From an uncultured Actinomycetes bacterium (GTDB taxonomy: Bacteria; Actinomycetota; Thermoleophilia; UBA2241): 64,000 nt of DNA. The stretch is taken from contig CAVPVX010000007.1 of NCBI GenBank assembly GCA_963709345.1, positions 713,447-777,446 of the forward strand, written 5' to 3'. The notes beneath the pieces are model-generated. The model was not told the DNA's origin, searched no databases, and was given only the letters and a program-made list of their open reading frames with translations. This document shows, piece after piece, positions 13,419 through 64,000 of the stretch; position 1 is the stretch's first letter, and each line of letters starts with the position of its first letter. The translations under genes were made by a program, and so were the position numbers.

Positions 13419-14696
13419 TCAGCCCGCAGGCGACGCGGCCGCCAGCTCCAGCGCCGCGCGGACCACCCTGGTGACCGACTCGCGGTCGCGGAGATGGCAG
13501 GACAGCACGGGAATCGACGCGCCGAGTCCAAGCGCCCTCGCGATCTGTTTCGGCGTCAGCTCGTCGTCGGCCATCGAGACGTAGGTGGCGACGACGAAGG
13601 GGACGTCGCCCATGCTCTTGACGAAGCTCAGGTCCGCCTTCGTGGCGCGCAGGCTGTCGGCGTCGTTGGCGTTGGCGAGGATCACCCAGGCGGAGCTCTC
13701 GCCGGCGAGACGCCGCCACGCCTGCTCCGGGCAGGACGAGGCGGCGGTGAAGACCAGCGCGTCACCGGCGGACGACCCTGCCCCGCGCTCGTCGCCGTTC
13801 TCGGCCGCGGGCAGCTGGCCGGCGACCACGGGAATCTCCATCTCTTTGTCGTCGATGAGCTCCACGCGCAGCTGCTTGACGACGTTCGAGTCGGTGAGCG
13901 TGTTCAGGAAGACCTCGTTGTAGAGGTCGATCGGTCCGCGCACGGCCACGCTGAGCCCCTTGCCGATGCCCTCGATCACCGGTTCGCTCACGGTGATGAG
14001 CCCGCTCGAGTAGAGCCCGTGGATGACCTTGGCGCCGCGAAAGCGGTCGAGGCCGGAGTCGCGCAGGACGACGTTGATGTCGGCGCGCCCGTCGATGCGC
14101 ACGACGACGCGCCACTCCTCGGCGGTCAGCCTGAGCTCGCCATCCTCCTCCACGCGGTCGCTGGTGGAGAGGTGCGGCACGCGCTCGAGCGAGCCGAGGT
14201 GCTCGAAGATGAGCGCCCACTCGTCGATGCGGCGGCAGCCCTCCATCACAACCGTCTCGACGCTCATCTCGACGAGGATGTCCTCCTGGGCGATGCTGTC
14301 GTCGACACCGAACTCGAACTCCCCGTCGGACCAGCTGAAGAAGTTGAAGGCGGCGTCCTGGATCTGCTCCCGCACCGCCTGCTCCAGCGTGGCGCGGTCG
14401 ATGCGCCCCTTCTCGAGGAGGATCCCACCGATGCGTGCGCCCTCCCCGGCCTTCTTCTGCGCGGCGAGCGCCTGCTTGAGCTGGTCGCCGGTGATCGCAC
14501 CCGCCTTGACGAGCCGCTCGCCGAGCGGCAGCTGCTGCGGCACCGAGAACGCGTAGCAGATCATCCCGTTGCGGAAGAAGATCTTGCCCCACTCGCCTTC
14601 CCGGCGGATGGTGAGCGAACCGCTCTTGGCGCTCATCTTCACGAGCTGGAAGATGTTGGGGAGACTGAACTCCTGCAGGTTGCCCTGGAGCAGCAC
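13419..14696 (-). CDS. DUF4388/PATAN-like protein with degenerate small-GTPase-like C-terminal domain
   Basis: [39 protein letters not shown]; C-term [18 protein letters not shown]. Confidence 0.75.
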
Positions 14697-35719: not shown

Positions 35720-35957
35720 CCCCCCACCTCCCCTGGTGCATCACCGAGGCCGGGCCGGCCCGGCGGCTACGCGAGCAGTATAGGGCCACTGTGACAACGC
35801 GCAACGGTCCTGGCGCCGGCGAAAGGCGCCCGCCCCGTCCAGTCCTTCCACGCGGCCCGGCGGTCCGCCCGGCGGGAGGCTCGAGCGACCTCCGCGCGGT
35901 AGAGTGGACCCAACCAACGTCGGCGGACTTGAAGTGGACACCGAAGGGAGTGAGCCC

Positions 35958-37427
35958 ATGAAGCGCAATCTCCAGGCGGGCGTGCGGCGCAACGCCGGCG
36001 CTCGCTTTGAGGTCTTCAGCGAAGCGGACCTCGACGACATCCATCGCGCCACACTGGAGGTGCTCGAGCGCACCGGTGTGTTCGTGGAGAGTGACGACGC
36101 GCTCGACGTGTACGCCGACGGCGGCTGCCGCGTCGATCGCGAGACCAAGACCGTGAGGTTCCCGCCGCACATCATCGAGGACGCCATCCGCTCGTCACCG
36201 AGCAGCGTGCGGCTCTGCGGGCGGGTGCCGGAGAACGACATCATGCTCGAGGGCGGCCGGGTCGGCTTCACCAACTTCAGCGCCGGCATCATGGTCCTCG
36301 ACCCGCGGACCGACGAGCACCGCCAGTCCACCGGGCAGGACGTCGCGGATCTCGCACGCATGACCGATTACCTCAGCGAGATCGACACGTACGAGCACTC
36401 CGTCGAGAGCCGCGAGTCGTCGCAGGACACGCTGGCCGTGCGCGACGCGGCCATCGGCCTCGCGAACACGACCAAGTGCGTCGGCACCGGGGCGCTCTCG
36501 ACGGACGACGTCGAGGCCATCGTGCGCATGGGCGCCGCCGTGGCCGGCGGCGAGGACAAGCTCCGCGAGCGGCCGCTCGTCTACTTCTGCGAGTGCCCCG
36601 TCAGCCCGCTGAAGCTCACGCGCGACGCGGCCGAGGTCATCATGGGCGCCGCCCGCCACGGCCTCCCGAACAACGTCATCTCCATGGCGATGTCCGGCGC
36701 GACCTCCCCGGTCACCTTGGCCGGCACGCTCGTCACGCACAACTGCGAGGTGCTCTCGAGCATCACCCTCGCGCAGCTCACCGAGCGTGGGGCGCCCAGC
36801 ATCTACGGCTCGTCGACGACGACCATGGACCTGCGGCTCGCGACGGCCTCCGTGGGCTCGCCCGAGCTCGGCTTGCTCAGCGCCGGCGTGGCCCAGCTCG
36901 CACAGCGCTACCTGCTGCCGAGCTTCGTGGCCGGGTTGTAGGCAGACTCCAAGCTCGGTGACGTGCAGACCGGTCACGAGAAGACGATGACCGCCCTCAT
37001 GGCAGCGTTGGCAGGCGCCAACCTGATCTACGGGGCGGGAATGACCGAGTCGGGCGTCACCTTCGATTACGCGCAGTACGTGCTCGACAACGAGATCGCG
37101 ACCATGGTCAAGCGCGCGGTCGGCGGCATTCCCGTCAGCGACGAGGATCTGGCCGTCGACGACATCCACAAGGTCGGGTCGTTCGGCCACTATCTGGGCC
37201 TCCCGGCGACCCGCAAGCGCGGGCGCGAGCTCAGCCAGCCCAAGCTTCTTGACCGCCGCGGTCGCGAAGGTTGGGAGGCCACGGGCTCCGTGGACGCCTA
37301 CTCCGCCGCCAAGGAGGCGGCGAAGCAGATCCTCGAAGAGTACCGGCCGGAGCCGCTCTCGAGCGACGTCGCCGACGAGATCCAGGCGATCCTGCACGAA
37401 ACGGAGGAGCGGCGCGGCGTCTCGTGA
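35958..37427 (+). CDS. mttB: Trimethylamine:corrinoid methyltransferase, pyrrolysine-containing (in-frame TAG 36939-36941)
   Basis: ORFs 35904-36941 and 36963-37427 are in frame; junction PSFVAGL-[TAG]-ADSKLGDVQTGHEKT matches the MttB Pyl motif; 489 aa with TAG at codon 328. Confidence 0.9.
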
Positions 37428-37445: not shown

Positions 37446-38462
37446 CTACCCCCCGCCGCCCACCGCGGTCTCGAAGTCGATGCGCGTCTCGGGGACGACC
37501 TCGAGCGTGATGGGCATGTCGAACACGCGGCCGCGCAGCGCCTCCTGCAGCGGTTGTGACGACGGAAGACCGCCCTGGCCGGCCACGACGATCCGCAGAC
37601 GGTCGTCGACGACCTCCACAGACACGAGCCGGAAGTCGCTCCCCTCCAGCCACGCAGTGGCGGCCTCGGTCGAGCGCTGGTCGATCAACGTGTTGATGAT
37701 CGACGACAAGCTCGTCGCCGCCAGCGGGACGATGATGAGGACGCCCAGCACGATCGCGAGCGCGAGCGCGGTCACCCTGGCGCGCTTCGACTGCTCGGCG
37801 AGGTAGGCGCGCGGATACCCCATGATCCAGAACATGAACGCCCCGGTCAGCAGGATGGCGAGGTAGTTGGTGACGAACAGCAGCAGGCTGCCCAGAGCGA
37901 GGTCGTAGTTCTTCGTCGCGAGCAAGACGCCGACGTTGGAAAGTGGAGGCACCAGAGAGATCGCGATGGCCACGCCCGGCAGCGTGTCGGAGACGTCCTT
38001 GCGCCCGGTCGCGAAGGCGCCGGCGAGCCCGGTGGCCAGCGCGGCCAGCAGATCGATCAGTCGCGGTGAAGTGCGGCTCATGATCTGGGAGTTCGCCTCG
38101 ACGTCGATGATGGAGCTGAAGCCGCGCGTGAGCGCGAAGCCCACCGCGACCGCCGTGCCGATGCCGAGGAGGGAGATCGTGAGCGACCGGCCGATCGCCC
38201 GCCGGTCTCCCAGGCTCACACTGAACGCCAGCCCCATGATGGGGAGCATCAACGGCGCGACGATCATCGCGCCGATCACCGTGGCGACGGAGTCGGCGAG
38301 CAGGCCGTACGTGGCGATCGCCGAGGCCAGCACGAGGAGCATGAAGAAGCGCCAGATCTTGCGCCTCTGCTCGGGCTGCTCGAACAGCAGCACGTCCCTC
38401 ACGCGCCGCAGCTCTCCGTCGTCGACCCTGCCACCGTGGAAGAACTCGTTGAACGCGCTCAC
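37446..38462 (-). CDS. DUF389 membrane protein
   Basis: ATVIGAMIVAPLM, SRTSPRLIDL, LPGVAIAISLVPPL. Confidence 0.9.
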   Translation of the reverse strand: MSAFNEFFHGGRVDDGELRRVRDVLLFEQPEQRRKIWRFFMLLVLASAIATYGLLADSVATVIGAMIVAPLMLPIMGLAFSVSLGDRRAIGRSLTISLLGIGTAVAVGFALTRGFSSIIDVEANSQIMSRTSPRLIDLLAALATGLAGAFATGRKDVSDTLPGVAIAISLVPPLSNVGVLLATKNYDLALGSLLLFVTNYLAILLTGAFMFWIMGYPRAYLAEQSKRARVTALALAIVLGVLIIVPLAATSLSSIINTLIDQRSTEAATAWLEGSDFRLVSVEVVDDRLRIVVAGQGGLPSSQPLQEALRGRVFDMPITLEVVPETRIDFETAVGGGG

Positions 38463-38748
38463 GTCGCCCCCTCGTCTCAGCCGGCGCGTCCGGCGTGTCC
38501 GGACTCCGGCGCCTTCGCCACTGCGGCGACATGTTCGCACAGACGCGTCGATTATGGGAGGCGAAGGACTCCTGGAGCGGAGTGCCCGGGTGGGCACAGC
38601 AAAGCACCAGATCGCACGTCCGCGGCCACGTGAGAGCGCCCGGGACAGGGCGGCAGGGGGCGGGTGTGACATGGAGTCGGAGTTGCGCTCAAGGCCGCAG
38701 CGGCGAGCAGCCTCGCCGCCCGGCGCACTGCGGCGCGCCGGGGCGCGG

Positions 38749-62167: not shown

Positions 62168-62827
62168 ATGACTGGGAGTCCCAGCGCCATCGAGCGCATC
62201 CGTGCGGCATTTGCGGGTGGGGAGTTCGACGAGGTAAGGCCTTTGATCCAGCGGGGGCTGGACGAAGGCGCGGACCCCGGCGCTCTCTTGGACGACGGCA
62301 TGATCCCGGGGCTCCGGGAGGTCGGCGAGCAGTTCCAGCGCTCTGAGGTGTATCTGCCCGAGATGATGATGGCAGCCGACGCTTGGCAGGAGGGCATGGA
62401 CCTCCTGGGCCCGCTGCTCGCCGCCCAGGGGCGAGGGGGCGAGGCCAAGGCCAAGGTCGTCCTCGGCTCGGTCAAGGGCGACGTGCACTCCCTCGGCAAG
62501 AGCATCGTGGCGACGATGCTGCAGACGGCGGGCTTCGAGGTGATCGACCTCGGCTGCGACGTGCCTGCGGCCGGGTTCGTCGAGGCGGCCGAGAAGGCGA
62601 AGGCGGACATCATCGCCCTCTCGGCGCTCATGACCACGACGATGGCGCAGCAGCAGGACGTCATCCAGTACCTGGAGGCCCGGGGAAGCAGGGCCGACTA
62701 CTACGTGATGGTGGGCGGAGGCCCGACGACCGCCGGATGGGCCGAGGAGATCGGCGCCGACGGCTACGGGCGGACGGCGGCCGATGCCGTGGACCTCGCG
62801 CTCGCGTATGTTGAGGCCGGCCGATGA
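62168..62827 (+). CDS. Methyltransferase cognate corrinoid protein (MtmC/MttC-like)
   Basis: GLREVGEQF..YLPEMM cap, VKGDVHSLGK (DxHxxG), SALMTTT, MVGGGP, IGADGY. Confidence 0.93.
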   Translation: MTGSPSAIERIRAAFAGGEFDEVRPLIQRGLDEGADPGALLDDGMIPGLREVGEQFQRSEVYLPEMMMAADAWQEGMDLLGPLLAAQGRGGEAKAKVVLGSVKGDVHSLGKSIVATMLQTAGFEVIDLGCDVPAAGFVEAAEKAKADIIALSALMTTTMAQQQDVIQYLEARGSRADYYVMVGGGPTTAGWAEEIGADGYGRTAADAVDLALAYVEAGR

Positions 62828-64000
62828 TCTCCTTCGAGGACGTCGTCGACCGCGCAATGACCGGCCCTCTGGTGCCGGAGAGGGACTACGACCTCAAGGT
62901 CTTCGTTCCCGCGCTGCGCCGGATCCTGAAGAAGTACGAGATCCGCTACGACCCGCAGGTCGTCGTGCCGTCCGACGACGAGTTCGCCGATCGGCTGTTC
63001 CGGGCCGGCCTGGAGTTCTACCAGGAGGTCGGCACGTACTGCGTGGACACCAGCCGCATCATCCAGTTCACCGAAGAGGAGATCCGGGAGGCGCTGGCCA
63101 CGGCCCCGCAGGGACCCGTGTTCGGCGAGGGCAAGGACGCCAAGGCGTACCCGTCCCGGCGGCCCGAGAGCGAGATCCCGCCCTGGTGCTACGTGGGGGC
63201 GGGCGGCACTCCCGTCTCGAGCGAAGAGGTGTTCGAGGCCTTCGTGCAGGCCACCGGCGAGATCCCCCTGGGCGACGGCGTCACGGCGCCCGCGCTGGCC
63301 AACTACCACGGGTCGATGGTCCGCGCCGGCACGCCCCTGGAGATCCTGGCCTGCATCAAGAGCACTGTTCTCACGCGCGAGGGTCTGCGGCGAGCCGGCC
63401 GGCCGGGCATGCCCGTGCAGAACTCCATCGCCACGGCCGTGTCGGACGCGGGCAAGATCGCCGGCAGCGCCTTCGGCATGCGGCCGTCGGACGGCTGGAA
63501 CATCGGGCCGCTGGCCGAGATGAAGGCCAGCTGGGAACGACTGAACGAGGTCGCCTACGTCATCAGCCTGGGCGGGCATGTGGTCGCGGAGACGTGCCCC
63601 ATGGTCGGCGGCTACTGCGGTGGTCCGGAGGGCATGGCCGTGGCCAATGTCGCCTATCACCTCCACTCGATGCTCGTCTTCCGCGGCTCGATCCAGCTGA
63701 ACTTCTCCATCGACATGCGCACCTCGAGCAGCACGAGCAGGGAAGTCATCTGGGGCATGAGCGCCAGCGCACAGGCGATCTCGAGGAACAGCCACTTCCC
63801 GCTGCAGATCTCGGCGCTCACGGCCTCCGGCCCCGGCGCCGAGATGCAGCCCTACGAGGCCGCGGCGCCGATCATCGCGCACGTCGTCTCGGGCAGCTCG
63901 GTCGGTCCCACCGGCGGCTCGCCGGGCAACTCCGTGATGGATCACATCACGCCCATGAACGGGCGCTGGTCCTCGCTGGTCGCCCACTCCGTGCTGGGGA
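62824..64000 (+). CDS. mtmB: Monomethylamine methyltransferase (MtmB) family, non-Pyl, 3' end outside window
   Basis: Manual translation: DRAMTGP..GTYCVDTSRII..AGTPLE..AGRPGMPVQ..GGYCGGPEG; open to window end. Confidence 0.82.
   Translation, partial: MISFEDVVDRAMTGPLVPERDYDLKVFVPALRRILKKYEIRYDPQVVVPSDDEFADRLFRAGLEFYQEVGTYCVDTSRIIQFTEEEIREALATAPQGPVFGEGKDAKAYPSRRPESEIPPWCYVGAGGTPVSSEEVFEAFVQATGEIPLGDGVTAPALANYHGSMVRAGTPLEILACIKSTVLTREGLRRAGRPGMPVQNSIATAVSDAGKIAGSAFGMRPSDGWNIGPLAEMKASWERLNEVAYVISLGGHVVAETCPMVGGYCGGPEGMAVANVAYHLHSMLVFRGSIQLNFSIDMRTSSSTSREVIWGMSASAQAISRNSHFPLQISALTASGPGAEMQPYEAAAPIIAHVVSGSSVGPTGGSPGNSVMDHITPMNGRWSSLVAHSVLG

Follow-up and report, generated by a model that had tools for sequence, protein, structure and literature searches.

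A probable pyrrolysine-dependent mttB gene with an in-frame TAG in a Thermoleophilia genome that encodes its own pyrrolysine machinery

The 64,000-nucleotide stretch analysed here (the window; C7:713447-777446, on contig CAVPVX010000007.1 of assembly GCA_963709345.1) comes from an uncultured bacterium of the class Thermoleophilia, phylum Actinomycetota, and carries mttB, a gene for a trimethylamine:corrinoid methyltransferase whose reading frame contains a single TAG codon. We conclude that this is very probably an intact, full-length gene for a pyrrolysine (Pyl)-dependent MttB, decoded by the Pyl machinery of the host itself. The genome comprises 3.11 Mb in 11 contigs at 69% GC, and is 98.06% complete and 1.45% contaminated.

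Translation of positions 35958-37427 on the forward strand gives 489 codons in which the TAG at 36939-36941 is the sole internal stop, followed by a terminal TGA; the listing of open reading frames (ORFs) holds the same gene as two pieces in one frame, 35904-36941 and 36963-37427, and the surroundings of the TAG read GCC GGG TTG TAG GCA GAC TCC AAG. With the TAG read through, the product matches Pfam MTTB (PF06253) at E=1.5e-96, its residues 11-479 corresponding to profile positions 25-492 of 500. The best solved relatives, over query residues 2-484, are the Methanosarcina barkeri MttB chains 7xcm (E=3e-115) and 7xcl/7xcn (E=2e-114), and the ATG at 35958 is consistent with that alignment as the start codon, query residue 2 falling on chain residue 3. 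Chain 7xcl has an X at position 334, in lpsyvagsXsdakvpddqaghektmt, and this X is aligned with codon 328 of the window gene inside a Pyl-site motif common to both proteins, VAGxXxDxKxxDxQxGHEKT. The first-pass annotation of this DNA had claimed one frame broken by a single TAG at codon 328 of 489, lying at the catalytic Pyl site near residue 334; the translation, the DNA and the ORF listing confirm the first part, and the alignment with 7xcl the second. The non-Pyl branch of the MttB superfamily, exemplified by the glycine betaine enzyme MtgB (2QNE, 9YCE), shares the Pfam family and the fold, but scores only 213 bits against the window protein as compared to 386-388 bits for 7xcl/7xcm (388 for the best of these Pyl enzymes).

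The TAG is also conserved. A scan of genome contigs yielded 37 loci encoding relatives, and 35 of them contain a single stop each, namely a TAG in the homologous column; of the two exceptions, one ends at a contig edge before the site (L090) and the segments of the other were mis-joined (L092). The 35 TAG-bearing loci include records of Desulfobacterales, Desulfohalobiaceae, Peptococcaceae, Clostridia and Methanomethylophilaceae at 40-53% identity. Closer to the window gene, among orthologues at 75-94% identity, a codon alignment shows the TAG retained in 19 of 19 and replaced by a sense codon in none, at synonymous divergence (dS) of 0.18-0.72. Against these same orthologues the ratio of nonsynonymous to synonymous divergence (dN/dS) is 0.12-0.29 upstream of the TAG and 0.16-0.59 downstream, and purifying selection thus persists beyond the TAG, somewhat relaxed.

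The window gene has numerous relatives within its own genome. A search with PF06253 returned 64 matches, approximately 34 of them full-length. Those with one TAG are seven intact mttB genes (the window copy included), which are 52-67% identical to one another, and two frame-broken copies. The eight TAG-bearing paralogues that were aligned share a single column for their TAGs, within a GHEKT-containing motif that the paralogue alignment finds confined to them; the approximately 25 further MttB paralogues have neither a TAG nor the GHEKT motif, and the residue at their Pyl column varies. Since the same column holds TAG in these eight paralogues and in 35 of the 37 related loci, the TAG is not there by chance. 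MtbB (PF09505) is represented by 10 full-length genes with one TAG each, and by one frame-broken copy.

The machinery needed to decode such genes is encoded on contig C11 of the same genome, where NCBIfam profiles at curated cut-offs, together with ARAGORN for the tRNA, identify pylB, pylC, pylD, pylT, pylSn and pylSc (Table 1). The synthetase is split, PylSn and PylSc being separate genes. The order is pylB-pylC-pylD-pylT, with pylSn 1.1 kb further on and pylSc 3.3 kb on, on the opposite strand, and a Germane/Gmad2 gene, a radical-SAM gene and a gene for an MttC-type corrinoid protein at C11:17681-18316 are interspersed in the region. The frames of pylB, pylD, pylSn and pylSc are open, and both pylB and pylD are intact, with scores above the cut-offs. 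The tRNA-Pyl has a cloverleaf fold. Its acceptor stem measures 7 bp, its D stem 4 bp and its D loop 5 nt, the predicted anticodon stem is long at 7 bp, the CUCUAAA anticodon loop bears the CUA anticodon, and the G-CCA end is encoded; such traits of the fold are typical of tRNA-Pyl. Three checks proposed in the first-pass annotation, on the pyl genes with pylT, on the alignment with Pyl-containing MttB and on the codon in relatives, all speak for its reading.

Table 1. Coordinates of the features discussed. Unprefixed positions are those of the window; prefixes C1 to C11 denote contigs of the genome.
Feature	Position	Strand	Details
mttB, predicted Pyl-type trimethylamine:corrinoid methyltransferase	35958..37427	+	489 codons including the in-frame TAG; TGA end at 37425-37427
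UAG codon 328, predicted to be read as pyrrolysine	36939..36941	+	aligned with X334 of 7xcl_A
Rfam RF02510 PYLIS_3 ("pyrrolysine insertion sequence mttB")	36939..37038	+	75.9 bits (gathering 38), E=1.2e-15; begins on the TAG
6-bp hairpin GUUGGC-AGGC-GCCAAC	37007..37022	+	+69 to +84 from the T of TAG; RNAalifold, columns 69-84
MttC-type corrinoid protein	62453-62791		followed by the MtmB homologue
MtmB homologue (PF05369)	62839-63993		248 bits; runs off contig end; no in-frame stop
second MtmB homologue	C2:391900-393261		stop-free
pylB	C11:11672-12883		427 bits (cut-off 348)
pylC	C11:12741-14087		280 bits summed (cut-off 248)
pylD	C11:14133-14939		212 bits (cut-off 150)
tRNA-Pyl(cta)	C11:14991-15063		ARAGORN
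pylSn (PylS_Nterm)	C11:16156-16485		122 bits (cut-off 51)
pylSc (PylS_Cterm)	C11:18402-19259	-	318 bits (cut-off 178)
MttB/MtbB locus split across frames	C2:330290-333210		
MttB/MtbB locus split across frames	C10:8783-10127		
MttB/MtbB locus split across frames	C10:13844-15245		
MttB/MtbB locus split across frames	C1:449578-454078		
MttB/MtbB locus split across frames	C8:11655-13051		
MttB/MtbB locus split across frames	C5:8-803		
MttB/MtbB locus split across frames	C7:338111-339503		
MttB/MtbB locus split across frames	C2:435077-436970		
MttB/MtbB locus split across frames	C11:176097-177473		

TAG nevertheless remains an everyday stop codon in this organism. In a crude gene set of 2115 ORFs of at least 100 codons whose G+C content at third codon positions (GC3) has the coding pattern, covering 75% of the genome, TGA ends 74.9% of genes, TAG 21.2% (448/2115) and TAA 3.9%, and release factor 1 (RF1) is present at 483 bits. 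TAG is ambiguous in this genome, not reassigned. Within the same set the TAG stops are not backed up by a nearer second stop (a median of 54.5 codons after TAG as compared to 51 after TGA), nor are they distinguished by the base that follows. For instance, the convergent gene next to mttB, which encodes a DUF389 protein (37446-38672, minus strand), itself ends in a TAG, approximately 20 nt past the mttB stop, so that an ordinary-stop TAG lies beside a Pyl gene.

A GC3-based screen for coding sequence continuing beyond a TAG gave 49 candidates besides mttB and mtbB, every one of them with an in-frame start 0-49 codons beyond the TAG, and the rate at which coding follows a stop is alike for TAG (65/448, known genes included), TGA (138/1585) and TAA (13/82). 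One candidate was discarded as two known genes, AFOR and a ferredoxin. A Pfam search of the other 48, with TAG read as K, found no domain across the TAG in 47. The 48th (C7:522771-524312, L265) encodes a DUF1858-DUF438-Hemerythrin-PAS_10 protein with TAG at codon 210, and was rejected as a private GAG-to-TAG change: GAG stands there in 7/7 congener loci, and no stop occurs in 28/28 matching congeners. With an Arg/Gly/Pro-rich stretch at residues ~345-440 that resembles an out-of-frame segment, it is either a gene that is broken or a stretch of poor consensus, and its TAG might be partly suppressed in a Pyl-decoding cell. With 47 of 48 candidates lacking a domain across the TAG and the last one private, the amber genes found in this genome are mttB and mtbB only.

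Two sets of observations weigh against the conclusion that the window gene is a working Pyl-dependent MttB, the first of which concerns its surroundings and partners. A scan of 19 neighbouring ORFs showed no corrinoid protein (no MttC gene in particular), no methylcorrinoid methyltransferase (MT2) and no activase closer than approximately 6 kb to the gene, and mttP is likewise absent beside it; the neighbours encode an LPG synthase, an actinobacterial holin-X, the DUF389 protein, a DUF1611 protein and a peptidase of family S51. Searches of the genome for an MtrH-type methyltransferase and for acetyl-CoA synthase (CdhC/ACS) found neither. Across the 37 related loci this neighbourhood is common only to four (L056-L059) and weakly to a fifth (L065); the more distant orthologues adjoin ABC transporters, an integrase, F420 oxidoreductases and the like and mostly stand alone, only one of them (L069) having a corrinoid protein and another MTTB gene nearby. 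Elsewhere in the genome candidate partners are present. There are 24 B12-binding matches, nine of which score 85-103 bits, are MttC-type and lie beside methyltransferase genes; there are also one RACo/RamA-type activase with a 2Fe-2S domain and four URO-D matches, and TetR and AsnC regulators occur in the methyltransferase islands. A genome search for heme-copper oxidase (COX1) found none.

On this basis we envisage the following scheme. PylB, PylC and PylD would make pyrrolysine from lysine, PylSn and PylSc would charge tRNA-Pyl (CUA) with it, and the charged tRNA would read UAG 328, placing pyrrolysine at the equivalent of M. barkeri Pyl-334. By analogy with M. barkeri MttB, the enzyme would then demethylate trimethylamine and methylate the Co(I) of a small MttC-type corrinoid protein; because no gene of this type lies beside the window mttB, the probable acceptor would have to come from the approximately nine copies encoded elsewhere. 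Reduction of the corrinoid would be maintained by the single RACo/RamA-type activase, and a putative MT2 would pass the methyl group on. Since RF1 is present and TAG ends approximately one fifth of the genes, insertion at the UAG would either compete with termination or depend on the timing of pyl expression.

Trimethylamine as the substrate is suggested by homology. Alternatively, the enzyme might be Pyl-dependent and yet serve something else, if the seven Pyl-type paralogues have been split among methylated amines and this standalone copy acts on another of them. The divergence of the seven copies is in keeping with such a division of labour, as are the varied, non-methylotrophic contexts in which relatives carry this orthologue group and the merely 62% identity of the best match in one congener (G021). 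However, the motif xDSKxxDxQxGHEKT is kept as in M. barkeri MttB and, to our knowledge, every characterised Pyl-containing MttB acts on trimethylamine, and we regard a different substrate as unlikely.

The second set of contrary observations concerns the integrity of the machinery and of its targets. Approximately nine MttB/MtbB loci in the genome are split across frames (Table 1), which indicates that the family is partly decaying or that the assembly is prone to indels; contig C8, moreover, resembles the end of C1, so some methyltransferase copies may be assembly redundancy. One congener (G003, 93% complete) has three TAG-type mttB genes, yet neither PylS nor PylC was found in it, which departs from a clean pattern. 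In the present genome, pylC has one extra base relative to 4/4 congeners (C11:13877, L014), outside any homopolymer, which puts its last ~65 residues in the +1 frame, and it passes its cut-off only with its scores summed. Contigs from the four best-matching public runs were placed on the pyl cassette alone; no public run contains more than 0.19 of the sampled words of the cassette, and none of the listed matches is RNA. One environmental contig of 264 nt (run X1) spans the pylC junction with 1 mismatch and without the extra base at 13877, so that the frame is restored, but its depth is just 2.4. We consider the frameshift a probable consensus error or a change private to the strain.

Were the frameshift instead to have broken the Pyl system of this strain, the amber genes would no longer be made full-length and would be starting to decay, and both the inserted base and the split methyltransferase loci could be taken in that sense. 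Seven mttB and ten mtbB genes are nevertheless still intact apart from their TAG, frames are open in the five remaining pyl components, and the environmental contig lacks the base, all of which makes a broken system very improbable in our view. Finally, a pseudogene or assembly error, in which the TAG would be a nonsense mutation leaving a truncated product of 327 residues or no protein at all, would suit a gene that standard annotation splits, in a genome with several frame-broken MttB copies and a private nonsense TAG elsewhere (the GAG-to-TAG case above), but is hardly credible for a TAG exactly at the Pyl column, shared across phyla and with eight aligned paralogues, with no further stop downstream, dN/dS below 0.6 in 19/19 comparisons and the pyl machinery in the genome.

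The Rfam model PYLIS_3 matches the window from the TAG onward (Table 1) and matches six further mttB copies of the genome, while PYLIS_2 matches six mtbB genes, all above gathering. In the window, however, 3/8 pairs of the PYLIS_3 model are non-standard and the stretch encodes the most conserved peptide of the protein, so the score is mostly coding conservation. For an alignment of 26 sequences RNAalifold yields another structure, with a covariation term of only -0.79 kcal/mol, and pairing and covariation as in the PYLIS_3 model are not borne out. Where it treats the mttB region, the source paper of the PYLIS models reports no sign of a common structure (PMC3639795).

What RNAalifold does find is a 6-bp hairpin that is not within the Rfam PYLIS_3 consensus structure and is weakly formed in the consensus, which we assume to be Methanosarcina-type. 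Its bases are paired in 98.7% of 156 cells (26 sequences), as compared to 19-56% when the partner is slid. The hairpin encodes (A)LAGAN, as GCG TTG GCA GGN GCC AAC, using two codons that are rare in this genome, TTG (3.9% of Leu codons) and GCA (4.9% of Ala codons), both of which are used by 8/8 Pyl-type mttB paralogues. Of the 11 TTGGC-N4-GCCAA sites in the whole genome, eight belong to Pyl-type mttB genes. Scanning metagenomes for the Pyl-site pattern gave at least 122 stretches, from which 79 unique sequences were analysed; the counts that follow are among the matches listed. The helix has 6/6 pairs in at least 42 of the 79 and five pairs in at least 10, and is absent from clades with other motifs. 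For 46 unique high-GC3 sequences we counted the Leu codon together with the codon at the Asn position: TTG goes with AAY in 40/46, CTG with AGC or GGC in 5/46 and CTG with AAT in 1/46, and TTG goes with any other codon in 0/46. The loop A of codon GCA is kept in 45/46, and the fourth loop base is free to vary. The five switched CTG cases may represent only one or two events, relatives not being independent.

These patterns lead us to suggest, tentatively and with more doubt than confidence, that the hairpin is a cis RNA element under selection in a large and predominantly bacterial clade of Pyl-type mttB, acting on the handling of the UAG and kept by rare codons and by a compensatory switch of the Leu codon when the paired Asn codon changes. 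By our own reasoning, a helix at +69 is too distant to touch the ribosome that decodes the UAG; the putative element would influence how efficiently the UAG is read through or what becomes of the mRNA when the UAG serves as a stop, or would bind a factor. The hairpin is possibly a new detail of Pyl-type mttB and, if functional, it would again raise the question whether cis-elements take part in inserting pyrrolysine in mttB.

With regard to distribution, PylS exceeds its cut-off in 23 of 24 genomes of the same genus, in 1 of 16 others of the class and in 2 of the 401 genomes sampled across the phylum, the present one included. PylC exceeds its own cut-off in 25 of 30 genomes searched, and 15 congeners have pylC and pylSc on a single contig, in convergent orientation and separated by 3-7 kb, matching the present genome. 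A congener without PylS (G387, 98% complete) has just two MttB homologues, both stop-free, and a genome of another family that does have PylS (G032) carries a TAG-type mttB 6 kb from pylSc. The first-pass annotation had guessed an actinobacterial host, and the closest records are indeed titled as metagenome-assembled genomes (MAGs) of Thermoleophilia or Actinomycetota. It had also called the presence of pyrrolysine in such a host unusual, which holds for the phylum at large, where PylS is rare; in the genus, however, the trait is near-universal, and for Actinobacteria it is already in print (PMC9630628, PMC10805028).

Comparison with known systems places the window gene among established mechanisms. 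M. barkeri MttB (7XCL, 7XCM, 7XCN) is alike in having UAG at the Pyl-334 site, in the same motif VAGxOxDxKxxDxQxGHEKT. The setting differs, as the host here is a 69% GC bacterium with a split synthetase, no mttC or mttP adjoins the gene, and TAG is a common stop. Bacterial pyrrolysine systems are represented by Desulfitobacterium hafniense and Acetohalobium arabaticum. As compared to other bacterial Pyl systems, the present cassette is unlike in its layout, with pylSn 1.1 kb beyond pylB-pylC-pylD-pylT, pylSc on the opposite strand and unrelated genes in between; it is alike in having pylBCD and pylT, separate pylSn and pylSc (PMC9630628) and a TAG that is still a stop.

Guo et al. (2022) list PylRS genes in 81 bacterial genomes, two Actinobacteria among them, with PylSn and PylSc always separate (PMC9630628), and Ellenbogen et al. 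(2023) describe Actinobacteriota MAGs of Stordalen Mire that express Pyl-type mttB and mtbB (PMC10805028). Because these two reports already include Actinobacteria, the Pyl-type mttB described here is not new to the group, and the mechanism is the known insertion of pyrrolysine at UAG. The Stordalen Mire MAGs are alike in phylum and in the two amber gene families, and one of our related loci, L090, is titled "isolate bog_752", which recalls the genus Bog-752 named in that paper; in the passages concerned, Pyl genes were recognised there by truncation, unlike in the present analysis (PMC10805028). A literature search for pyrrolysine named together with Thermoleophilia found nothing relevant. 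The deltaproteobacterial symbiont of Olavius algarvensis, for which Zhang and Gladyshev (2007) describe a large pyrroproteome and also selenocysteine (PMC1976440), is alike in its many Pyl methyltransferase genes and in the presence of a tRNA for selenocysteine here, but belongs to another phylum, and the Pyl genes found in our genome are mttB and mtbB only.

This genome adds a well-documented, near-complete example to the small number of Actinomycetota for which use of the 22nd amino acid is known. In the genus the Pyl trait is no stray gene: the present genome holds 17 intact amber methyltransferase genes, and approximately 25 non-Pyl paralogues, in 3.1 Mb. With TAG ending approximately one fifth of its genes and RF1 kept, the lineage represents a useful natural case of life with an ambiguous codon, and it is a candidate bacterial methylamine sink in soils and peat. 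It should be borne in mind that annotation pipelines will split all of the amber genes.

Two further families deserve mention. The genome encodes two homologues of MtmB, neither with an in-frame stop, one of which lies near the end of the window (Table 1) and has Gln at the position of M. barkeri MtmB Pyl-202; both are non-Pyl members of the MtmB family. In-frame TGA codons in some of the MttB matches were considered as possible selenocysteine sites and rejected, since all fall in the first residues of the match, where the profile overshoots past the start. ARAGORN does identify a tRNA-Sec(tca) at C1:120215-120312 on the minus strand and, with both this tRNA and tRNA-Pyl encoded, the organism probably makes use of the 21st amino acid as well as the 22nd.

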